A stretch of 58,475 bases of DNA from Deltaproteobacteria bacterium (lineage in GTDB: Bacteria; Myxococcota_A; UBA9042; PHBI01). The stretch covers positions 1-58,475 of the forward strand of contig JAEUKJ010000179.1 in NCBI GenBank assembly GCA_016792665.1, read 5' to 3'. Below, piece after piece: positions 29,961 through 39,171 of this stretch. A program made the position numbers and the translations under genes. Each line of letters opens with the position of its first letter. Positions within the stretch are counted from its first letter, which is position 1. The notes under the pieces are model-generated. The model was not told where the DNA came from. It made no database searches and was given only the letters and a program-made list of their open reading frames with translations.

Positions 29961-30035
29961 GCCGCCGTAGAGGCGAGGATCGCGAGGCAAGGAGGCCGTG
30001 GCGCTGCCCCAGGGTGCGTGATATGGTCCGCCGCC

Positions 30036-32366
30036 ATGGCGAAGGTGACCCCACAGCGGTTCGGCAAGTACATCCTGCTCAGGCGCATCGCGCTCGGCGG
30101 CATGGCCGAGATTTTCAAGGCCAAGTCTGCAGGTGCCGAGGGGTTCGAGAAGGACCTCGTCATCAAGCGGATCTTGCCGCACTTCTCCGATGACGAAGCC
30201 TTCGTGCGCATGTTCGTGGACGAGGCGCGTCTCACCGCGAAGCTGCAACATCCGAACATTGTTCAGATATTCGATTTCGATGTGGTCGACGGCTCGTACT
30301 ACATCGCGATGGAGTACATCGAGGGCAAGGACCTGAAGGACATCACCGAGGAGTCGCTGAAGCAGGGCGACCCGCTCTCGGTGGCCCAGAGTGTCTTCAT
30401 CGCCGCCGAGGTCGCCAAGGGCCTGCACTACGCCCACACCAAGGAAGAGAAGGGGCAGCCTCTCGGGATCGTGCATCGCGACGTGACGCCGAGCAACGTC
30501 ATGATCTCGTATCGCGGCGACGTGAAGCTCATGGACTTCGGCATCGCCAAGGCCGCGCAGCGCTCGACCAAGACGCAGGCCGGCGCGGTGAAGGGCAAGG
30601 TCGCCTACATGAGCCCCGAGCAGGCGCGCGGCAAGCCGCTCGACGGGCGCAGCGACATCTTCGCGCTCGGCGTGATGCTCTGGGAGATGCTCACCGGCAA
30701 GCGCCTCTTCATCGCCGACAGCGACTTCGAGACCATCGAGCACGTGCTGAGGCTCGAGGCGCCGGCACCGAGCACGATCAACCCGCGCTGCCCTCCCGAG
30801 CTCGACCCGATCGTCGCGAAGTGCGTGGCGAAGGACCCGAACGCGCGCTACGCGTCGGCCGAGATTCTCGCGCGCGACCTCACGCGTTGGTACTACTCGA
30901 CGGTCACGGATCTCGAGAAAGAGAAGCTCAAGCCGCTGATGTATCGGGTCTTCAAGCAAGACATCGATCAGCTCGAGCAGAGCTCCTACGAGGACGACGC
31001 GGTGCTGGCGGCCGGCGGACTGCCGCCCATCGCGGGACCGACGGCGATGCAGCCTGCGTCGCGCACCGGGCCGGTGAGCGAAGACGCGACGCGCATGGAG
31101 ATCGGCACGGCCGACAAGACGCGCGTGGCGGCCGGCTCGCTGCTCAGCGACGTGACGTTGACGCGCTCGCGCGGGACCGTGACTGGGGCGCCGAGCCTCG
31201 CGAACCCGATCGAACCGCAGCGCAAGGGCTCGGCCCTGCCCTGGATCCTGCTGGCGATCCTCTTGCTGGGTGGCGGCTTCGCGGCCCTGTGGTTCCTGGT
31301 CCTCGACAAGCCCGCGACCATCGCCCAGGGGCCGACCACGACCCCGGTCGGTGGGACGGCCACCGCGCCGGGCCCCGACGTGACGAGCCCGGACAAGGGC
31401 AAGGCGACGCTCTACATCAAGGTCGATCCGCACACGGCCGAGGTGAAGGTCGATGGCAACGTGGTGGGCGGCGAGGTGTCGGGGCTGAACCTCGGCCAGA
31501 AGGTGCGGGTGGTCGCCGAGGCCCCCGGCTACAAGCGCTTCGAGGACTTCGTCGCCATCGAAGATCCGGCGCCGGTCTTCGCGATCAAGATGGAGAAAGA
31601 GGGCGTCGCCCGGCGCGTCATCATCAAGCCGTCGGCCGACGCGGACGAGGTCTTCGTCGACGATCAGCGGCTCGGTCTCGGGGCGCAGCCGTTCTCGGGG
31701 ACGGTCGGCCAGGAGGTCCTCGTGCGGATCGTGCCCGCGACGGGTGGGCCGGCGGTGACGAAGCTCGTGAAGATCACCGAGGACGCGTCGACGTTCGAGG
31801 TCGCGACCCCGGGAGCCCTGGTCGTCACGATCGAGCCGGTCGAGGCGAAGGTGACGGCGTCGAGTGGCACGATCGAGGTCCAGAAGCCGGGGGTCGTCGC
31901 GATCCGGGGCGTCGAGTACGGCAAGACGGTCACGATCGAGGTCAAGGCGAAGGACTTCAAGGACGCGGTGCGCGACGTGATCGTGTCGCAGCCGAACCAG
32001 GCCGTGTCGGTGAAGCTCGACAAGGCCGCGCCCGAGAAGCCGGGCAAGCCCGAGAAGCCCGGCACGCCGGACAAGCCCGGCACGCCCGAGAAGCCCGGCA
32101 CGCCTGACAAGCCCGGCACCCCCGACAAGCCCGACAAGCCCGAGATCCCGGTCGCCTCCAAGGGGTCGATCAGCGTCACGGCAAAGCCGTGGGCGCAGGT
32201 CCAGGTCAATGGCCGCCCGTACGGGTCGGTGCCCGTCACCGTGAAAGAGCTCAGCGAAGGGACCTACACGGTGCTCCTGACGAAGGGGCCGCAGTCGGTG
32301 ACCCGGACCGTGATCGTGAAGGCCGGCAAGCAGGCCTCGGTCTTTGTCGACTTCACCGAGCTGTGA
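30036..32366 (+). CDS. Membrane Ser/Thr protein kinase with PEGA-like extracytoplasmic domains
   Basis: GGMAE, VIKR, HRDVTPSN, DFG, YMSPEQ; TM helix; C-terminal PWAQVQVNG PEGA repeat. Confidence 0.95.
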   Translation: MAKVTPQRFGKYILLRRIALGGMAEIFKAKSAGAEGFEKDLVIKRILPHFSDDEAFVRMFVDEARLTAKLQHPNIVQIFDFDVVDGSYYIAMEYIEGKDLKDITEESLKQGDPLSVAQSVFIAAEVAKGLHYAHTKEEKGQPLGIVHRDVTPSNVMISYRGDVKLMDFGIAKAAQRSTKTQAGAVKGKVAYMSPEQARGKPLDGRSDIFALGVMLWEMLTGKRLFIADSDFETIEHVLRLEAPAPSTINPRCPPELDPIVAKCVAKDPNARYASAEILARDLTRWYYSTVTDLEKEKLKPLMYRVFKQDIDQLEQSSYEDDAVLAAGGLPPIAGPTAMQPASRTGPVSEDATRMEIGTADKTRVAAGSLLSDVTLTRSRGTVTGAPSLANPIEPQRKGSALPWILLAILLLGGGFAALWFLVLDKPATIAQGPTTTPVGGTATAPGPDVTSPDKGKATLYIKVDPHTAEVKVDGNVVGGEVSGLNLGQKVRVVAEAPGYKRFEDFVAIEDPAPVFAIKMEKEGVARRVIIKPSADADEVFVDDQRLGLGAQPFSGTVGQEVLVRIVPATGGPAVTKLVKITEDASTFEVATPGALVVTIEPVEAKVTASSGTIEVQKPGVVAIRGVEYGKTVTIEVKAKDFKDAVRDVIVSQPNQAVSVKLDKAAPEKPGKPEKPGTPDKPGTPEKPGTPDKPGTPDKPDKPEIPVASKGSISVTAKPWAQVQVNGRPYGSVPVTVKELSEGTYTVLLTKGPQSVTRTVIVKAGKQASVFVDFTEL
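32031..32145 (+). repeat. Coding repeat P(E/D)KPG(T/K)
   Basis: 18-bp units in the kinase linker. Confidence 0.8.
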
Positions 32367-32624: not shown

Positions 32625-33239
32625 ATGTCGCGATACACCGGTCCTCGTCTCAAGAAGATGCGCGCGCTCGGAATCGATCTCCCCGGCCTCTCGCGGAAGT
32701 CGATCGAACGGCGGCCTTACCCGCCGGGTCAGCATGGCCCGAAGGCGCGCAAGAAGCTCACCGACTACGGCAAGCAGCTTGCCGAGAAGCAGAAGCTTCG
32801 CCTGAACTACGGCCTGGGTGAGCGCCAGATCCGCCGCTACATGGTCGAGGCCCGCCGCTCGAAGACGGCCTCGGGCGACAAGCTCGTCGAGCTGCTCGAG
32901 CGTCGCCTCGACAACGTGGTGTTCCGCGCCGGCTTCGCGCCGACGATCCCGGCCGCCCGCCAGCTCGTCGCGCACGGTCACTTCACCGTGAACGGCCGCC
33001 GCGTCGACATCCCGAGCTTCCAGGTGAAGGTCGGCGATCTCGTCTCCGTGAAGGAGAAGAGCCGCGAGCTGAAGGCCATCCTGGAGAGCGTCGAGGCCCA
33101 GAGCCTGGCGCGCCCCGACTGGCTGGACGTGAACAAGGGCGAGAAGAACGCCAAGATGCGCGAGCTGCCCGGCCGCGAGTCGCTGCCGTTCACGTGCGAC
33201 CTCCAGCAGGTCGTCGAGTACTACGCCAAGCGCCTCTAG
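32625..33239 (+). CDS. rpsD: 30S ribosomal protein S4 (stand-alone, no zinc-ribbon cysteines)
   Basis: MSRYTGPR, PPGQHG, QLAEKQK, LERRLDNVVFR, ARQLVAHGH, VVEYY. Confidence 0.97.
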   Translation: MSRYTGPRLKKMRALGIDLPGLSRKSIERRPYPPGQHGPKARKKLTDYGKQLAEKQKLRLNYGLGERQIRRYMVEARRSKTASGDKLVELLERRLDNVVFRAGFAPTIPAARQLVAHGHFTVNGRRVDIPSFQVKVGDLVSVKEKSRELKAILESVEAQSLARPDWLDVNKGEKNAKMRELPGRESLPFTCDLQQVVEYYAKRL

Positions 33240-33294: not shown

Positions 33295-33336
33295 GCAAAG
33301 ACCCTGCCTCCTCACGGATGCGGGGTTTTTGCTTTG
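33295..33336 (+). terminator. Intrinsic terminator after rpsD
   Basis: GCAAAGACCCTGCCTCC-TCAC-GGATGCGGGGTTTTTGC stem with a U-rich end. Confidence 0.7.
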
Positions 33337-33403: not shown

Positions 33404-33430
33404 GTGTCCACCGCGCGCGACTCACGGGTC
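33404..33430 (+). promoter_or_regulatory. Putative ECF-sigma autoregulatory promoter GTGTCCAC-N13-CGGGTC
   Basis: Same motif and spacing recur at 36844-36870. Confidence 0.6.
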
Positions 33431-33471
33431 TCAGTGATTGTAGACCCTCGAGGCACCCCCTACGGAGCACG

Positions 33472-33960
33472 ATGCCTCCCGCCATCGCACGGACCGAGCT
33501 CGACCTCGGCCACCTCTATCGCACCCACATCACCATGGTCCGCCAGCGTTGCTTGCGGATCCTCGGAGCCCAGGCCATGGCCGAAGACATCGCCCAGGAC
33601 GTCTTCGTCTCGTTCGCCGAGACCTACGGCTCGAAGCCGCCCGAGCGATCGGGCGCGTTGCTCTATGCGATGGCGACCCACCGGGCGCTCAACGCGTTGC
33701 GCGATGGGCGGCGACGCAACGAGATCCTCGCTCAGAACGCGAGCACGGAGGTCGAGATCCCCAACGAGCTCGGCGTCGATCTGCGCCGCGCGCTAGCGGC
33801 CCTCGACCCCGAGCTCGCCGCGATCGGCACCTACACCTACGTCGACGGCATGGAGCAGGACGAGATCGCCGAGGTCCTCGGGCTCCATCGACGCACCGTG
33901 AGCCGACGCCTCGAAGCCTTCCGCGTCGAGGCGCGCGCGCTCCTCGGAGGACAGCGATGA
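33472..33960 (+). CDS. ECF RNA polymerase sigma factor
   Basis: Region 2 AEDIAQDVFV...LYAMATHRALNALR; region 4 DGMEQDEIAEVLGLHRRTVSRRL; GGAG RBS. Confidence 0.92.
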   Translation: MPPAIARTELDLGHLYRTHITMVRQRCLRILGAQAMAEDIAQDVFVSFAETYGSKPPERSGALLYAMATHRALNALRDGRRRNEILAQNASTEVEIPNELGVDLRRALAALDPELAAIGTYTYVDGMEQDEIAEVLGLHRRTVSRRLEAFRVEARALLGGQR

Positions 33961-34634
33961 CAACGATCAACCCGACACGAACCCCGACCTGCCTCTCCGC
34001 CTATCGCGTGTCCCAGCTCGCGGCGGGCCTGCTCGCGGGCCCGTCCCTCGCCACCTGCGAGGCCCACCTCGCCACGTGCGCCCGCTGCAGTGAGCTCGTC
34101 GCGCATGAACGCCGCGCCGTCGAGGAAGCCCTCGCCGCGCCCGTGCCGCCCTCGCTGGCAGTGATCGCAGGGCGACGCGACGCAGCGATCGCGGCCAGGA
34201 AGCGCTGGTGGCGCGTGCTGCCGATGCTGGGGATCGTGGCGATGGCAGCCCTCGCCCTGGTCGTGGTCCAGACCTCGGGTGCGCCCGACCCGCAGCCCGA
34301 CACGATCCGCGCCAAGGGCGCCTTCGTGGTCGAGGCCAGCGTCCAGCGCGACAACGCTCTGGTCGTCGATCAGCAGCGCCTGAGCGATCTCGGCACGCTG
34401 CGCGACGGCGATCGCCTGCGCCTCCACCTGCGCAACGCGACGGGCTCGGTGAAGGTCGAGGGGCAGGACGGCGCGACCTGGGTGATCCTCTTCGAGGGCC
34501 CGGTTCCGGCCGATGGATGGTTGCCGCTCGGGCTCGCCGTCGACAATACCTCCGAGACCGCGCTACGTGTGACCGTGTGCGCGGCCGCCGAGGTCGCGTG
34601 CGAGACCCTCACCCAGAGGCTGGACGTGCGTTGA
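33957..34634 (+). CDS. Zinc-binding (ZAS) transmembrane anti-sigma factor
   Basis: C...HLATCARC (HxxxCxxC), one TM helix, periplasmic beta domain; ATGA overlap with the sigma gene. Confidence 0.85.
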   Translation: MTTINPTRTPTCLSAYRVSQLAAGLLAGPSLATCEAHLATCARCSELVAHERRAVEEALAAPVPPSLAVIAGRRDAAIAARKRWWRVLPMLGIVAMAALALVVVQTSGAPDPQPDTIRAKGAFVVEASVQRDNALVVDQQRLSDLGTLRDGDRLRLHLRNATGSVKVEGQDGATWVILFEGPVPADGWLPLGLAVDNTSETALRVTVCAAAEVACETLTQRLDVR

Positions 34635-36184
34635 TGTTGGCCGCCCTCGCGACGCTCATCGGGCTCACCACCGCCGCCCTCCCTCCGCCTGGCGAGACGC
34701 GCTATGCGCTCATCGTCGGCGCCCACGAAGGGGCCAGCGGCGAGGTCACCCTCGCCTTCGCGGGGCGCGATGCGAAGCGCGTCGGCGACGCCCTGGTGCA
34801 GCTCGGCGGCTTCCTGCCCGACAACGTCGTGACCCTCATCGACCCCGACAGCGGTCGCATGCGGGACGCTCTGGCGCGGCTGAATGCGCGGCTCCGTGCC
34901 GAGCGCGGCCCCAACAAGACCAGCGTGCTGTTCGTGTACTACTCGGGGCACGCGGACGAGCGTGCGCTCCACCTCGGCGACACCGCCGTGCCGTGGGACG
35001 AGCTCGTCAACAACGTGCAGGGCTCGGCGGCCGAGCTGCGCGTGCTGGTCGTCGATGCCTGTCGATCGGGCTTCGCGACGCGCGTGAAGGGCCTGAGACC
35101 CGACGTGCCCTTCGCGCTGCCGGTCGCGGTCGAGCCCGCCGCCGAGGGCATGGCCATCCTGGCGTCGGCGACCCAGGGCGAGGACGCGCAGGAGTCCGAG
35201 GCGCTCGGCGCGTCCTTCTTCACGCACCACCTGCTGGCCGGCCTGCGCGGCGCGGCGGATGCGAACGACGACTCGCTCGTGACCCTGGAAGAGGTCTATC
35301 GCTATGCGCGCGATCAGACCGTCGCCAGCACCGCGACCACCGCGACCGGCGTCCAGCATCCGACCTACCGCTGGGACTTCAAGGGCCGGGCCAACGTGGT
35401 CCTGGCCACCCTCGCGGCGACGCGCTCGCAAGGCGTCGTCGTGCTGCCCGGCGAGGGGCGCTTCCTCTTTCACGAAGGCCGCGTCGATGGCCCGCTCGCC
35501 TCCGAGGTCGTCAGCCGCGGGGTCGGCACGCGCGTGCTCTTGCCGGCCGGTCGCTACGGCGTGCGCTGGCGGCGGCCGGCGCGCTATCACGAGGGCGTCA
35601 TCAACGTGGTCGCCCAGAAGGAAACGGCGATCGATGCCTCGTCGTTGCAGGTCTTCGAGTACGCGCGCCTCGTCCGCAAGGGGGGCGCGGCCGACGACGC
35701 GTGGGAGCTCATGGCGCTGGGACAGGTCGCCTCGCCGCCGCTCGCGGCCTACGACGCGACGCCGGGGATCGCACTCGGGGCGTCTCTCGATCTCAGCGCG
35801 TTGGGCCTCGACGCGCTCCTCTGGTATGGCGCGTCGGCCTCGGCCGGCGACGGGCTCGCGGCCACGGCCCACGAGCTCGGGCTGGTCGTCGGCGTCCGCA
35901 AGAGCTTCGACGTCGGGCCGGTCGCCCTCGGGCTCGGGGTGCGCGGCGGCCTGGTCGCGCTCGCGCAGTCCTTCGAGGCCCCGGACGAAGCGACGCGCAG
36001 GCGGTTGGCTCCGTTGCTCGAGGTCCCGCTGCGCGCGGCGATCGTCTTGGATGGGCCGCTCTCGCTGGTGCTGGAGGGCGGGCTGCGGGTGAGCCCGCGT
36101 GAGGTCTTGCGCGACGACGAGAGCGCCGAGGCGACCTGGCTCGGGGCCTGGGGTCGGCTCGGGCTCGCGTGGGCGATGCCATGA
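34634..36184 (+). CDS. Exported caspase-family (C14-like) protease with probable C-terminal outer-membrane beta-barrel
   Basis: Signal-like N-terminus; RYALIVG, catalytic YYSGHA and DACRSG, SFFTHHL..GLRGAAD, QHP; amphipathic beta-strands ending RLGLAW. Confidence 0.85.
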   Translation: MLAALATLIGLTTAALPPPGETRYALIVGAHEGASGEVTLAFAGRDAKRVGDALVQLGGFLPDNVVTLIDPDSGRMRDALARLNARLRAERGPNKTSVLFVYYSGHADERALHLGDTAVPWDELVNNVQGSAAELRVLVVDACRSGFATRVKGLRPDVPFALPVAVEPAAEGMAILASATQGEDAQESEALGASFFTHHLLAGLRGAADANDDSLVTLEEVYRYARDQTVASTATTATGVQHPTYRWDFKGRANVVLATLAATRSQGVVVLPGEGRFLFHEGRVDGPLASEVVSRGVGTRVLLPAGRYGVRWRRPARYHEGVINVVAQKETAIDASSLQVFEYARLVRKGGAADDAWELMALGQVASPPLAAYDATPGIALGASLDLSALGLDALLWYGASASAGDGLAATAHELGLVVGVRKSFDVGPVALGLGVRGGLVALAQSFEAPDEATRRRLAPLLEVPLRAAIVLDGPLSLVLEGGLRVSPREVLRDDESAEATWLGAWGRLGLAWAMP

Positions 36185-36819
36185 AGACCTGGGGCGCGAT
36201 CGCAATGGGGGTCGCCGTGACCGTCGGCGCCTGCGATCCGTTGGCGGAAGGCGACTGGCGCGGCGCGCCGCAGATGATCGTGCGCCTCGAGGTGGGCGCG
36301 CTACCGATCCCGCGCCCCGACGAGCTGCGCACCCTCGCCATCGTGTGGACCTCGCTCGGTGGGCCGACCGATCGCCAGAGCTTCGAGCTCCCCCAGGCCG
36401 AGCCGCAGTCTTTCGGCGGGGTCGAGCTGCGCCTCCACGCCAGCACCGCCATGCGCAACGTGGCCCAGGTCGGGGCTGCCGCCCCGAAAGCCGGCGTGGC
36501 GATCGGCTTCCCGCTGGTGCGACTCGGTGACGTGAGCGAGCCCCTCGATCTCGACGATGGGGTCATCGCGGTGAGCGACGACCACTACCTCGTCTGGGCC
36601 GAGGACGCCGACCGCGCACGTGCCGCGGGTGGCCCGGCGATGGCGGCGATCTTGAACCCGATCGCCCTCGAGGATGGCTTCAACCTCGCGGTCGGCGTGT
36701 GCCGCGAGGGGCGGCCGAGCCAGGTCCTCATCGTGCCGCCCGAGCGCGTGGCCCTGGTGCCGGTCGAGACCGTGCGCGCGGGGAGCTGCCTCGACGTGTT
36801 CTGGGGCGCCTGGCGATGA
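36181..36819 (+). CDS. Hypothetical lipoprotein
   Basis: TVGAC lipobox; ATGA overlap with the caspase gene. Confidence 0.8.
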   Translation: MKTWGAIAMGVAVTVGACDPLAEGDWRGAPQMIVRLEVGALPIPRPDELRTLAIVWTSLGGPTDRQSFELPQAEPQSFGGVELRLHASTAMRNVAQVGAAAPKAGVAIGFPLVRLGDVSEPLDLDDGVIAVSDDHYLVWAEDADRARAAGGPAMAAILNPIALEDGFNLAVGVCREGRPSQVLIVPPERVALVPVETVRAGSCLDVFWGAWR

Positions 36820-36843
36820 ATCGCGAGGGGCCCTCATTTTCTG

Positions 36844-36870
36844 GTGTCCACGGGCGCGAGCTCGCGGGTC
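36844..36870 (+). promoter_or_regulatory. Second copy of putative ECF promoter GTGTCCAC-N13-CGGGTC
   Basis: Matches 33404-33430; about 85 bp upstream of ATG 36955. Confidence 0.6.
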
Positions 36871-36954
36871 ATCCACAGCGAGACCGGCAGCGACGACTTG
36901 TGCGCAAGCCGAGATGACCAGCACACTGACGACGACCGACCCTTCGAGGACACC

Positions 36955-38517
36955 ATGCGACGCCTTGCTCGACCCATCCTGCTCACCGCAATGACCTTCG
37001 GTCCCCTGACCTCGGCCTGCACCGAGACGAGCGAACCCGTGAAGGGCCAGCCGATCGTGATCTTCCCGGCCGCCGTCCAGAGCGCCGCCAAGACCAACGC
37101 CCGGGCCATCGCGCACGAGCTCTGGCAGGCCCAGGACTGGCTCGGCAAGACCGACAGCGTCGACGCGATCGGGGACGTCTTCCAGTTCGGGGTCGAGACC
37201 GACATCCCGGCGCCGCGCAACGCCATCTTCCTGCCCGAGGACGAGCGCGAGTTCAACGAGGCCATGGACGACCTCGACACCTTCCTGGAAGAGCACGTGT
37301 TCGTCGATGCGCAGATCGAGTCGCGCAACGACACCTCGATCACCTACAAGCTCGACCCGCAGATCGCTTGCGACGCCGATCTGTTCGACCTCGAAGATTG
37401 CCAGCGCTTCCTCACCGAGATGCCGATCCGCATCCGCGCCACGCGCTTCCGCGAGTCCGACGTGGACCTCGAGTTGCTGGCCGGCCCCGACAAGACGAGC
37501 CTCGCGACCCTCGAGCTGCACGAAGACCTGGCGGCCCTGACGGTCGACTTCGCCTCGGGGGCGGCGGTCATCGACGAGCTCGTCGCGGTCGCCGACGGCG
37601 ACGATGAGGACGGCCCCACGGTCGACATCGACGGCAAGGCCCGCATCGCCGTGCGCCGCCTGGCCGAGGACAAGCTGCGCCTCGAGTCCGCCGTGACCGA
37701 GCCGATCGCGCTGAAGGTCGACCAGGGCGAGGAGGGCATCGTCGAGGTGACGAGCGCGCTCGGCACGTTCGCCCTGGACGTCGACTACGCCGCGAGCAAG
37801 GCGACCCTCGACATCGACCTCGGCCGCAGCACGGTGACCGCGCCGAAGCGCCTCGTGCAGATGCAGCCCGAGTGCTACGAGGTGTGGTCGACCGACGCGG
37901 ACGGCAACGAGACCTACACCGAGGAGTGCGACGGCGAGACCCTGCCGGAGGCCCAGGGGCAGTTCTCGCTCATCGTCGAGCGCTTGGCCGTCTATGCCGA
38001 GCTCGATGACACGGCCAAGAACATCGCGTTGAAGGGGCTCGCGCTGGGGCCGATCAAGGTCCTCTCGGATGCGGCGACCGCGGCCGAGCTCTCGATCGGG
38101 GGCACGACGCCCTTCGACCTCACGCTCGCGACCAACGACGACGACACCGTGAACCTCTCCCTGTCGCGGGCGGTCGAGGCCTCGGCCATCCTGCGCATGG
38201 GCCTCCTCGACGACACCTTCGGTGACCTCCCCGAGTGGTTCCGCGACGAGGACCTCGGCTTGAAGATCCTCGGCGAGGCCCCCTCGCTCACCGCCCTCGT
38301 CGAAGGCATCATCGTCGGAGCCGCCACCACCCTCGAGATGACGAGCCGCTTCGGCGACCCGCAGCAGTTCTCGGCCGAGGCCGGCCAGTGCGTGTGGGTC
38401 GACACCTCGACCGACCTCGAGGAGAACGAGTCGCACCCGTTCGACATGCGCAAGGGCGACACCTGCCCGGAGCCCGACGCCGAGATCGGTGTCGGCGGGA
38501 GCAACCCTCCGTCCTGA
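36955..38517 (+). CDS. Large acidic beta-rich lipoprotein of unknown function
   Basis: GAGGA RBS; LTSAC lipobox; three apparent Cys pairs. Confidence 0.82.
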   Translation: MRRLARPILLTAMTFGPLTSACTETSEPVKGQPIVIFPAAVQSAAKTNARAIAHELWQAQDWLGKTDSVDAIGDVFQFGVETDIPAPRNAIFLPEDEREFNEAMDDLDTFLEEHVFVDAQIESRNDTSITYKLDPQIACDADLFDLEDCQRFLTEMPIRIRATRFRESDVDLELLAGPDKTSLATLELHEDLAALTVDFASGAAVIDELVAVADGDDEDGPTVDIDGKARIAVRRLAEDKLRLESAVTEPIALKVDQGEEGIVEVTSALGTFALDVDYAASKATLDIDLGRSTVTAPKRLVQMQPECYEVWSTDADGNETYTEECDGETLPEAQGQFSLIVERLAVYAELDDTAKNIALKGLALGPIKVLSDAATAAELSIGGTTPFDLTLATNDDDTVNLSLSRAVEASAILRMGLLDDTFGDLPEWFRDEDLGLKILGEAPSLTALVEGIIVGAATTLEMTSRFGDPQQFSAEAGQCVWVDTSTDLEENESHPFDMRKGDTCPEPDAEIGVGGSNPPS

Positions 38518-38547: not shown

Positions 38548-39171
38548 TCACGCGGTGACGCGCGCGACCTTGGCCCGCCCTGCGCTCGCATCGCGCAGCG
38601 CCGCTTCGAAGGCGGCGCGGACGGCACTCTCGATCGACACCGTCAGCGTGACCTCGGCGCCGTAATCGGCGCCTTCGTGTTTGGCCGCATAGGCCGCCAA
38701 CACCCCCTGCACCGCGCCGGACAGGGTGTAGTCGAAGCCGATGGCGTAGCGCGTGGTCGGCACGAAGGGGACGACCTGGCTCGCGGCGAGCACCGCGCGG
38801 GCCGCGTCCCCGTAGCCCTTGGCGAGGTCGCCGGTCGCCAGCTTCTGGCCACCCGGGATGCGCGCGACGAGCACGACGGTGTTTATCAGACCGAGCTGGT
38901 CGAGGCGCTGGAGGATGGGTCGACCCGCGGCACCGATGGGCTCGCCTCCATCGGACCAGCCGAAGTCCTCGGGCTCGGGGGCGACGCGAAACGCGTAGGC
39001 GTGATGCACCGCGTCGGGATGGTCCGCGCGCGCCTCGACGAGCGCGGCCTTGGCGATGGCGAGCCCGTGCTCGGGCGCGGTCGGCAGGGCGCGCGCCAGA
39101 AAGCGCGAGGCCTTGACGCGCTCGCCCTCGGCGAAGGCGGGCTCGGCAATGGTCATGAATGAGGTCGTCAC
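38548..39171 (-). CDS. YigZ/IMPACT family protein (divergent)
   Basis: VKASRFLA, HPDAVHHAYAFR, SDGGEP..AGRPIL, C-terminal ferredoxin-like domain. Confidence 0.85.
   Translation of the reverse strand: MTTSFMTIAEPAFAEGERVKASRFLARALPTAPEHGLAIAKAALVEARADHPDAVHHAYAFRVAPEPEDFGWSDGGEPIGAAGRPILQRLDQLGLINTVVLVARIPGGQKLATGDLAKGYGDAARAVLAASQVVPFVPTTRYAIGFDYTLSGAVQGVLAAYAAKHEGADYGAEVTLTVSIESAVRAAFEAALRDASAGRAKVARVTA

Follow-up and report, generated by a model that had tools for sequence, protein, structure and literature searches.

A conserved Myxococcota gene module in which an exported caspase-like protease may act as site-1 protease for an anti-sigma factor

A 58,475-nucleotide stretch of DNA from a deltaproteobacterium (Deltaproteobacteria bacterium; Myxococcota_A in the GTDB lineage; GenBank assembly GCA_016792665.1, contig JAEUKJ010000179.1, forward strand), referred to here as the window, carries four overlapping genes that encode a sigma factor of the extracytoplasmic function (ECF) type, a single-pass anti-sigma factor, a caspase-like protease of family C14 and a lipoprotein. 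A fifth gene, a putative target of the sigma factor, follows. The best explanation for this arrangement is that the protease is the dedicated site-1 protease for the anti-sigma factor in an envelope-signalling module of the Myxococcota. We infer the cleavage from conserved sequence features and structure predictions and place the probability of this reading at roughly 0.55. The module itself is a Myxococcota family and not a one-off. The five genes, placed by start-codon context and homology, are listed below.

33472-33960, plus strand: gene for the ECF sigma factor, 162 amino acids
33957-34634, plus strand: gene for the single-pass anti-sigma factor, 225 amino acids
34634-36184, plus strand: gene for the exported C14 caspase-like protease, 516 amino acids
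36181-36819, plus strand: gene for the lipoprotein, 212 amino acids
36955-38517, plus strand: fifth gene, putative sigma-dependent target, 520 amino acids, lipoprotein-like, family unknown

An earlier note on this DNA described the first four genes as coupled by overlaps, and this is the case: the sigma and anti-sigma genes share ATGA, the anti-sigma and caspase genes TGATG and the caspase and lipoprotein genes ATGA (window positions 33472-36819). The fifth gene begins after a gap of 135 nt. Position 33404, at which the note's region begins, is not a gene start and is the start of a promoter-like motif (33405-33430). The G+C content of the region is 67-74% and spurious frames are abundant.

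Homologues of the caspase were sought in 301 genomes of the phylum and were found at E <= 1e-10 in 126 of them, often several to a genome and in some genomes five. Three samples were taken. The first consists of the 29 best loci outside the window's own genome, or 32 when the window and two paralogues from its genome are added. The second consists of 40 lower-ranked, more divergent homologues, which were surveyed with hidden Markov models (HMMs) jointly with the first sample as 72 loci. The third comprises named records and overlaps in genomes with the other two. Since the three samples share genomes (GTDB representatives) and relatives, the locus counts given here are not independent events. 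L027/L055, in which the anti-sigma frame is seemingly broken, was excluded from the anti-sigma alignment and scored as a miss in the 72-locus survey; L015/L063, L075 and L098 are cut by contig ends, the caspase frame of L073 is split and the long frame of L074 looks spurious.

The conservation of this neighbourhood in the Myxococcota, and the frequency of such clusters, had been anticipated in the earlier note and are evident in all three samples. An ECF sigma gene lies about 1 kb upstream on the same strand in 27 of the 29 loci of the first sample and, with wider flanks, upstream in 31 of the 32, the exception being a contig end. Across the 72 loci the periplasmic domain of the anti-sigma factor is encoded directly upstream of the caspase in 66 and a sigma factor upstream in 64, three of the sigma misses being contig ends. 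Among the 69 loci of the third sample with at least 1500 nt of upstream DNA, a sigma gene was found in 67 and the C-terminal domain of the anti-sigma factor in 66. In most homologous loci the sigma gene again overlaps the anti-sigma gene, and the anti-sigma gene that of the caspase. The association also holds within the window's own genome, where all five caspase matches adjoin a sigma/anti-sigma pair and each of the four anti-sigma factors of the module type (E <= 3e-18) adjoins a caspase homologue. The taxa of the third sample are almost all Myxococcota (Nannocystaceae, Kofleriaceae, Haliangiales, Polyangiaceae, Anaeromyxobacteraceae and Bradymonadia), with Nannocystis exedens DSM 71 and Labilithrix luteola DSM 27648 among the cultured carriers, and Myxococcota is also the commonest phylum in the protein atlas.

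The following features of the protease are relevant to its proposed role.

34940-34951, plus strand: YSGH, residues 103-106, with the catalytic His106 (G-H in 72 of 72 homologues)
35054-35062, plus strand: DAC, residues 141-143, with the catalytic Cys143 and the S1-pocket Asp141 (D-x-C in 72 of 72; aligns with metacaspase DSCHSG)
35078-35092, plus strand: TRVKG, residues 149-153, the R-x-K-G of the loop after the catalytic Cys, a candidate autoprocessing or pseudo-substrate site (from conservation)
35399-35659, plus strand: beta-sandwich domain, residues 256-342 (AlphaFold2 strands; no Pfam family)
35669-35686, plus strand: LVRKGG, residues 346-351, linker between sandwich and barrel, a candidate self-release site (from conservation and low model confidence, below 50)
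35699-36178, plus strand: predicted eight-stranded outer-membrane beta-barrel, residues 356-515 (AlphaFold2 and Foldseek)

The assignment to the caspase fold is supported by a Pfam match to Peptidase_C14 (47.2 bits against a cut-off of 21.4; E = 2.9e-12), and the best sequence relatives of solved structure are metacaspases (AtMC4 at 1e-06, CgMCA1, AtMC9 and Yca1). The NCBIfam model NF047832, 'caspase, EACC1-associated type', gave 68.8 bits, under its cut-off of 140. No CHAT or TPR domain was matched by Pfam in any of the five module proteins, and the protease is the product of a separate gene. The His-Cys dyad recognized in the earlier note consists of His106 and Cys143 and is invariant in the 72 homologues; G-H, D-x-C, D46, E183 and E187 are likewise present in 72 of 72. 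Asp46 aligns with the Asp of the metacaspase C-x-N-D motif (CVND in AtMC4) and D141-A-C143 with D-S-C, positions which we take to be the acidic S1 pocket of the Arg/Lys-specific metacaspases. The protease is probably active and Arg/Lys-specific.

The AlphaFold2 model of the protease, with a predicted local distance difference test (pLDDT) score of 88.2 and a predicted template-modelling score of 0.71, places a caspase domain at about residues 21-250, the sandwich at 256-342 and eight long strands of high pLDDT at 356-515. Two segments are of low confidence (pLDDT < 50), namely the loop 153-168 and the linker 345-353. A Foldseek search with this model returned two groups of relatives. Firstly, there are MALT1, caspases, metacaspases and legumain. 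Secondly, there is the OmpA transmembrane domain, with template-modelling (TM) scores of 0.68-0.71, together with NspA, OmpX, OmpW and Ail. The AlphaFold2 strands and the OmpA-type matches thus support the barrel at the level of prediction, and the eight-stranded, OmpA-like form of it agrees with the earlier claim of a C-terminal barrel. The terminal aromatic residue that was part of that claim is absent; the protein ends LAWAMP, with an aromatic at position -4. Many homologues end Y-x-P or Y-x-R. An eight-stranded barrel has both termini in the periplasm, and the catalytic domain would therefore be periplasmic. A relationship between the beta-sandwich of the caspase and DUF4384, a domain family met below in the anti-sigma factors, was considered and rejected, profile-profile comparison with the anti-sigma family giving a probability of 0.5%.

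The export signal proposed in the earlier note is found across the family and is less clear in the window protein. A hydrophobic N-terminal stretch is present in 31 of 32 homologues by a crude hydropathy test, most of them with a basic residue before the stretch. The window protein read from the ATG at 34634 has no basic n-region; a GTG at 34598, as an alternative start, would supply one. Export of the caspase is supported mainly by these signal-like N-termini throughout the family.

The sigma factor is readily classified. Pfam matches Sigma70_r2 (2.4e-09, residues 15-82) and Sigma70_r4_2 (1.1e-08, residues 103-147), both above the cut-off, and NCBIfam TIGR02937 (sigma70-ECF) gives 57.9 bits against a cut-off of 42.9. 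The protein is small and has regions 2 and 4 only, which makes it an ECF (group 4) sigma factor. The anti-sigma factor shows the three features that the earlier note had listed.

34065-34088, plus strand: HLATCARC, residues 37-44, an H-x3-C-x2-C sequence motif
34206-34274, plus strand: predicted transmembrane helix, residues 84-106 (hydropathy maximum, inside the AlphaFold2 helix 65-106)
34305-34319, plus strand: IRAKG, residues 117-121, the proposed site-1 site R-x-K|G (from conservation and the AlphaFold2 linker)

By its HLATCARC motif and N-terminal helices the protein is like a zinc-binding anti-sigma factor (ZAS). The H...C..C motif occurs in 20 of 29 homologues. Its AlphaFold2 model, from an alignment of the 29 homologues (pLDDT 85.2), has helices at 15-60 and a long helix at 65-106, falls below pLDDT 50 at 110-118 and continues as a confident beta-sandwich at 124-224, of which the first strand is 124-131. 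The low confidence at 110-118 and the start of the sandwich at 124 indicate that the basic motif ends a flexible juxtamembrane linker, immediately before a folded domain. Pfam DUF4384 (PF14326) was matched in 14 of the 29 homologues at E <= 0.01 (best 8.1e-10, 39.1 bits against a cut-off of 27), the match beginning about 24 residues past the R-x-K-G motif, and the window protein aligns throughout with the homologues that match. A fold search with the anti-sigma model returned generic immunoglobulin (Ig)-like sandwiches only (RhoGDI, PDE6-delta, complement MG, PKD; best E 3.8e-04, TM <= 0.6), to which no function could be assigned. RhoGDI and PDE6-delta, which are lipid-binding Ig-like proteins, are among these weak neighbours (E 1.5e-03 to 3e-02, TM about 0.4). 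As a lead only, the periplasmic sandwich might bind a lipid or acyl chain.

The argument for a protease-substrate relationship centres on the R-x-K-G motif, the conservation of which in the cognate anti-sigma factors had been predicted. In the 29 homologues, of mean identity 24%, Arg118 and Gly121 are at least 90% conserved and are among about ten such columns. Of 67 anti-sigma factors, 42 have R.[KR]G, 54 have [KR]G and 64 have [KR][GAST]; in 77 from the third sample the corresponding counts are 62, 73 and 75. The prediction is upheld in the sense that [KR][GAST] is found in 64 of 67 and that the motif lies in a linker which AlphaFold2 predicts to be disordered (segment 110-118/121). The protease carries the same signature. 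R-x-[KR]-G occurs seven residues past the catalytic Cys in 64 of 72 caspases, with [KR]G there in 72 of 72, and the disordered loop 153-168 follows; in caspases and some metacaspases it is here that self-processing takes place. In the linker between sandwich and barrel, 69 of 72 caspases have [KR]G at the aligned columns, and the count rises to 71 when any position in the hexamer is allowed. A motif common to the anti-sigma linker and to the protease's own loop suggests a way of switching on a sigma factor that has not been described. In locus L061 there is no Arg at P3 in either protein (AEVKG, VNEKG), a single case to which no statistic is attached. A prediction of the complex between caspase residues 20-345 and anti-sigma residues 104-225 scored 0.00 in both runs; it gives no verdict and is counted neither way.

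The earlier note had also called the fifth gene a target of the sigma factor, and a promoter-like motif common to the operon and to this gene in three orthologous loci agrees with that designation.

33405-33430, plus strand: TGTCC-N16-GGGTC, putative autoregulated ECF promoter, 41 nt upstream of the sigma ATG
36845-36870, plus strand: second copy of TGTCC-N16-GGGTC, 84 nt upstream of the fifth gene

Against the two matches in the 58-kb window, 0.25 are expected; as many as two arise in 3 of 100 shuffles. Over the 7.25-Mb genome there are 22 matches against 15 for a reversed control. The ortholog L035, the caspase of which is 57-58% identical, has TGTCC-N16-GGGTC at the same two places, and L109 (69% identical) has the variant GTCCA-N14-CGTGTC at both places, so that the -10-like element has changed in step at the two sites. 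Seen at two sites in each of three genomes, this phylogenetic footprint supports the view that the operon is autoregulated and the fifth gene dependent on the sigma factor. Homologues of the fifth gene occupy the equivalent place in close relatives only, namely L006/L035 (33-36% identity) and L109 (36%). The relaxed pattern GTCCA-N14-CGKGTC gave 15 genome matches against nine for the control. Thirteen further genome matches to it (C65:85626, C214:2992 and 11 others), two of which share the extended GTCCAC...CGTGTC, could mark more members of the regulon. A separate candidate seen by eye upstream of the sigma gene and the fifth gene, CTTGTGCG.AA, was dropped, about one chance match being expected by a rough estimate.

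Several observations weigh against the protease-substrate relationship that we favour, or against parts of it. The motif is degenerate in a minority of anti-sigma factors, the strict R.[KR]G being found in only 42 of 67 and [KR][GAST] missing in three of 67, and the R-x-K-G after the catalytic Cys could be a structural or active-site element and not a cleavage site. In four of the 72 loci the order is different, the caspase being followed by the sigma factor and then by an anti-sigma factor that has no DUF4384-type domain, and one of the 72 loci is without any sigma factor. The anti-sigma factor of the window scores 17.2 bits with the Pfam model zf-HC2, under the cut-off of 22.2, and no Pfam DUF4384 match was obtained for it at E <= 0.1. 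A beta-signal with a terminal aromatic residue is absent from the window barrel, and only six of 32 homologues end in F, Y or W. The lipoprotein is possibly a modulator, the basis for this being co-occurrence only, with one barrel subtype only. A family-wide promoter dyad (5-mer, N15-18, 4-mer) sought in 30 sigma upstream regions was found at best in six sequences, where shuffles reach four to seven, and was rejected, the motif of the orthologous loci alone being retained; that no dyad is common to the 30 regions is expected, because the ECF systems are paralogous.

The most serious of the difficulties concerns geometry. Only about nine residues link sandwich and barrel, and 11-14 separate the inner-membrane helix from the proposed site. 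With so short a tether at the outer membrane and a site so near the inner membrane, direct attack by the assembled, outer-membrane-anchored enzyme is unlikely, and the simple picture probably needs an added step of release, or of mis-assembly or mislocalization. A release step for the protease is speculative and has the conserved [KR]-G of the linker as its one basis. The earlier note's interpretation, in which an outer-membrane-anchored periplasmic caspase modulated by the lipoprotein cuts the anti-sigma factor, is partly supported, in that each of its predictions open to computation (family-wide export, barrel, synteny, motif and target promoter) was borne out, and requires amendment in its simple geometry.

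With this amendment, a sequence of events can be proposed. The signal peptides, the predicted barrel and standard barrel topology suggest that, after export, the protease would be tethered to the outer membrane and its catalytic domain would lie in the periplasm. There it may be held inactive or out of reach, as a zymogen or with its own R-x-K-G loop as pseudo-substrate, and by spatial separation from the inner membrane. On a signal, and here we speculate, the protease would be activated and reach the inner membrane; perturbation of the outer membrane, failed barrel assembly or input from the lipoprotein are conceivable signals. Release might occur by self-cleavage at the conserved V-R-K|G-G linker or, alternatively, the enzyme might act before or without insertion of its barrel and so serve as a reporter of outer-membrane assembly. 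The protease would then cut the anti-sigma factor after Lys120 (R-A-K|G), removing the DUF4384-type domain and leaving a stub of about 14 residues; this position is proposed because the motif is conserved and is identical to the motif in the protease's own loop. By analogy with known systems a site-2 protease of the RseP type would clear the membrane stub and free the sigma factor. Such an enzyme is encoded in the genome of the window, where one frame of 583 amino acids on contig C692 gives RseP-like Peptidase_M50 matches of 109.8 and 88.2 bits. Finally, (T)GTCC-N15/16-(C)G(G/T)GTC promoters would be used by the sigma factor for transcription of its operon and of the lipoprotein-like gene downstream.

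Taken further, the module could be a protease-based monitor of outer-membrane assembly or integrity. The barrel would sequester the protease, at a distance from its substrate of roughly the width of the periplasm, and either non-insertion or a self-cut at V-R-K|G-G after damage, possibly gated by the lipoprotein, would lead to clipping of the anti-sigma factor and an ECF response. We offer this extension tentatively and regard it as unlikely.

An alternative that we consider somewhat unlikely, and that survives best of those weighed, is that caspase and lipoprotein are simply outputs of the sigma factor, transcribed along with it and acting on the envelope in stress, cell death or remodelling. 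The anti-sigma factor would then be inactivated in another way, by a different site-1 protease, by redox chemistry at the ZAS motif or by a ligand on the DUF4384-type domain, and R-x-K-G would have a structural or ligand-binding role. ECF operons commonly hold regulon members downstream of the anti-sigma gene and the present operon seems autoregulated; the geometry discussed above speaks against direct cleavage by the assembled, outer-membrane-anchored enzyme, and the ZAS motif could support redox sensing. Such outputs, however, usually vary by lineage, and here it is the fifth gene that varies while the caspase does not. In the window's genome the association is close to obligate whichever partner is taken as the start, all four anti-sigma factors (E <= 3e-18) adjoining a caspase, and synteny holds across three C-terminal architectures of the protease. 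The occurrence of R-x-K-G both in the exposed anti-sigma linker and in the protease loop is also less easily reconciled with mere co-transcription.

It is clearly improbable, in our view, that regulation is non-proteolytic or runs in reverse, with the DUF4384-type domain binding the caspase as inhibitor, tether or co-sensor, or with the anti-sigma factor controlling the protease. The catalytic domain and the anti-sigma domain are co-conserved, and the parts of the literature consulted describe DUF4384 as repeatedly fused to or found beside caspase-type proteases (PMC7475262; bioRxiv 2022.08.17.504292), which is compatible with a docking domain. The conserved motif, though, lies in a flexible linker and not on the folded domain, and none of the 72 homologues departs from the catalytic and S1 residues, from which it follows that proteolysis matters. 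Finally, chance juxtaposition or a gene-calling artefact has a negligible likelihood: the source is a metagenome-assembled genome of 789 contigs and 85.6% completeness, and 70% GC creates many spurious open reading frames, but the survey refutes this explanation with all four genes in the same order in dozens of genomes, including those of the cultured Nannocystis exedens and Labilithrix luteola strains.

The lipoprotein and the fifth gene product match no Pfam or NCBIfam family. The former has a lipobox VGAC at residues 15-18 (VTVGAC, 13-18), where homologues show L-x-G-C-G-D, and an HMM for its family finds a member in 25 of 32 loci; in 24 of these the gene immediately follows that of the caspase. 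It is found in 36 of 44 loci with the full-barrel caspase subtype against one of 28 others, the lone case being a split gene of the full-barrel subtype. Members of the family have C-terminal tails that are Cys-rich and very acidic. In L036, L038, L045, L050, L051 and L060 the DNA just upstream of the sigma gene encodes the end of a Cys-rich acidic protein, and in L037 a lipoprotein homologue lies upstream of the sigma gene; thus some lineages may have the genes in a circularly permuted order. For the fifth gene the protein atlas gave feature scores of no more than 0.87 and weak structural neighbours (AsmA-like, DUF2125 and TonB-receptor barrels; TM <= 0.62), which allow no assignment.

The other caspase subtypes keep the caspase domain, sandwich and linker and differ in the C-terminal region. 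Those of L092, L093, L095 and L097-L103 are proteins of 590-780 amino acids with a [KR]-G linker, beyond which come tandem G-x-Q-hydrophobic repeats and a C-terminus resembling a barrel, often with Phe as the last residue; sigma and anti-sigma genes lie upstream, and there is no c3-family lipoprotein. The loci with the variant order are L081, L085, L088 and L089, three of which belong to family f50, and their anti-sigma factors match the N-terminal part of the model only. A further protein in the window's genome, of 754 amino acids with a DUF4384-type C-terminus (L107; C46:298-2562, minus strand), has an ECF sigma factor upstream and lies on a contig that ends 297 nt downstream. Bins titled 'uncultured Enterobacterales' or 'Enterobacteriaceae' (L114, L140, L146, L152, L159, L163, L167 and L170) carry a myxobacterial-type module. 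Some of them are contigs placed in the window's phylum (L140, for example, is L043), and the titles look mislabelled.

The genes that flank the module look unrelated to it.

30018-32366, plus strand: Ser/Thr kinase with a C-terminal PEGA domain, two genes upstream of the module
32625-33239: rpsD, upstream flank
38548-39171, minus strand: IMPACT/YigZ-family gene, downstream flank

Homologues of the kinase (cluster c4) are found at variable positions in eight of 32 loci, which probably reflects only the abundance of kinases in such genomes. After rpsD and before the promoter-like motif of the sigma gene, at 33300-33335, there is a stretch resembling a hairpin with a T-run (GGATGCGGGGTTTTTGC). 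This may be the rpsD terminator and, if so, the module is a separate transcription unit. No CRISPR genes were found among the window genes scanned, and no genes of cyclic-oligonucleotide-based antiphage signalling systems (CBASS) were seen there.

Regulated proteolysis of an anti-sigma factor is itself well known. In the Sigma-E/RseA/DegS/RseP system of E. coli a single-pass anti-sigma factor undergoes regulated intramembrane proteolysis, the first, periplasmic cut of which reports the state of the outer membrane. DegS, whose gene lies outside the sigma operon, is an HtrA-type serine protease that is anchored in the inner membrane and has a PDZ sensor. The candidate described here, in contrast, is a cysteine protease of clan CD that is predicted to sit in the outer membrane and is translationally coupled to the anti-sigma factor; the presence of an M50 site-2 protease in the genome of the window is a point of likeness. 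RcsF, OmpA and IgaA provide a functional analogy only. In that system a lipoprotein and an outer-membrane barrel report the state or assembly of the outer membrane to an inner-membrane signalling protein, but Rcs is a phosphorelay and involves no anti-sigma proteolysis. What is plausibly new in the present case is the class and architecture of the protease, an exported, barrel-anchored C14 enzyme. The earlier note knew of no mechanistic description, and our literature search likewise found no exported barrel-anchored C14 protease coupled to such an anti-sigma factor. The module was not found described in the literature searched, including that which mentions DUF4384. The main text of the ECF re-classification (PMC7826278) contains no occurrence of caspase, DUF4384 or peptidase; its supplements on ECF group contexts, which lay outside the search, may already list the module.

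The closest parallel is from the same phylum. DdvA of Myxococcus xanthus is reported to be a ZAS anti-sigma factor fused to a periplasmic TPR-CHAT domain, for which a cut in the protein's own juxtamembrane linker, before RseP acts, is proposed (PMC11506125). The DdvA-DdvS pair and the present module have in common an ECF sigma factor held by a zinc-type N-terminal domain (ZAS-like by its motif in the module), a single membrane helix and a periplasmic protease of caspase fold proposed to make the first cut in a flexible juxtamembrane linker (PMC11506125). The DdvA protease is reported to be a CHAT domain with TPR, fused to the anti-sigma factor, dimeric and proposed to cut itself in trans (PMC11506125), whereas in the module a gene of its own encodes a C14 protein that has a signal peptide, a beta-sandwich and a predicted outer-membrane barrel. 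The anti-sigma factor of the module also differs in having a small DUF4384-type domain, and the module includes a lipoprotein.

A second parallel is the type III-E craspase, in which Cas7-11 with Csx29 (TPR-CHAT) is reported to cut Csx30, a protein that together with Csx31 holds RpoE (PMC10028731). One group of Csx30 C-terminal domains is reported to be DUF4384 (bioRxiv 2022.08.17.504292). The two systems resemble each other in that a caspase-fold protease cuts, or would cut, the linker ahead of the C-terminal domain in a protein that sequesters a sigma factor, and in that DUF4384 is present in one Csx30 group and in 14 of the 29 anti-sigma homologues studied here. Craspase, by the same accounts, is cytoplasmic, RNA-guided, CRISPR-linked and of the CHAT type, whereas the module is periplasmic by prediction, with a Sec-type signal and an outer-membrane barrel.

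Caspase-family proteases also recur beside ECF sigma factors elsewhere and are proposed to control them. The passages available describe neighbourhoods of EACC2-caspases with an ECF sigma factor plus a DUF1822 TPR protein, from Aravind's group (PMC8195603), and the group ECF54 with CHAT, subtilase or carboxypeptidase neighbours (PMC8999054). The domain sets differ (EACC2, TRADD-N, TPR), and ECF54 is without an anti-sigma factor. In neither, according to those passages, is there a barrel-anchored C14 protease together with an anti-sigma factor that bears ZAS motif, membrane helix, R-x-K-G and DUF4384.

Our analysis defines a large, multi-copy family of ECF sigma factors with a concrete candidate route of activation. 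Myxobacteria carry dozens of ECF sigma factors and, to our knowledge, the inputs of most of them are not known. The conserved R-x-K|G, the invariant Cys143 and the promoter motif are ready handles for mutants and a reporter. If our interpretation is correct, the clan CD caspase fold would join the short list of protease classes that act at site 1 of anti-sigma factors, and a bacterial caspase homologue would be placed in ordinary signal transduction rather than cell death. The periplasmic CHAT domain of DdvA, the craspase-Csx30 system and the association of DUF4384 with proteases would then be unified by one principle, a cut by a caspase-fold enzyme ahead of the C-terminal domain of a sigma-sequestering protein. 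Should the module in addition monitor the outer membrane, it would provide the first case of a caspase-fold enzyme serving in trans as a periplasmic site-1 protease, and an evolutionary sibling of the craspase-Csx30(DUF4384)-RpoE switch, with DUF4384 as a general caspase-addressed module on sigma-sequestering proteins.

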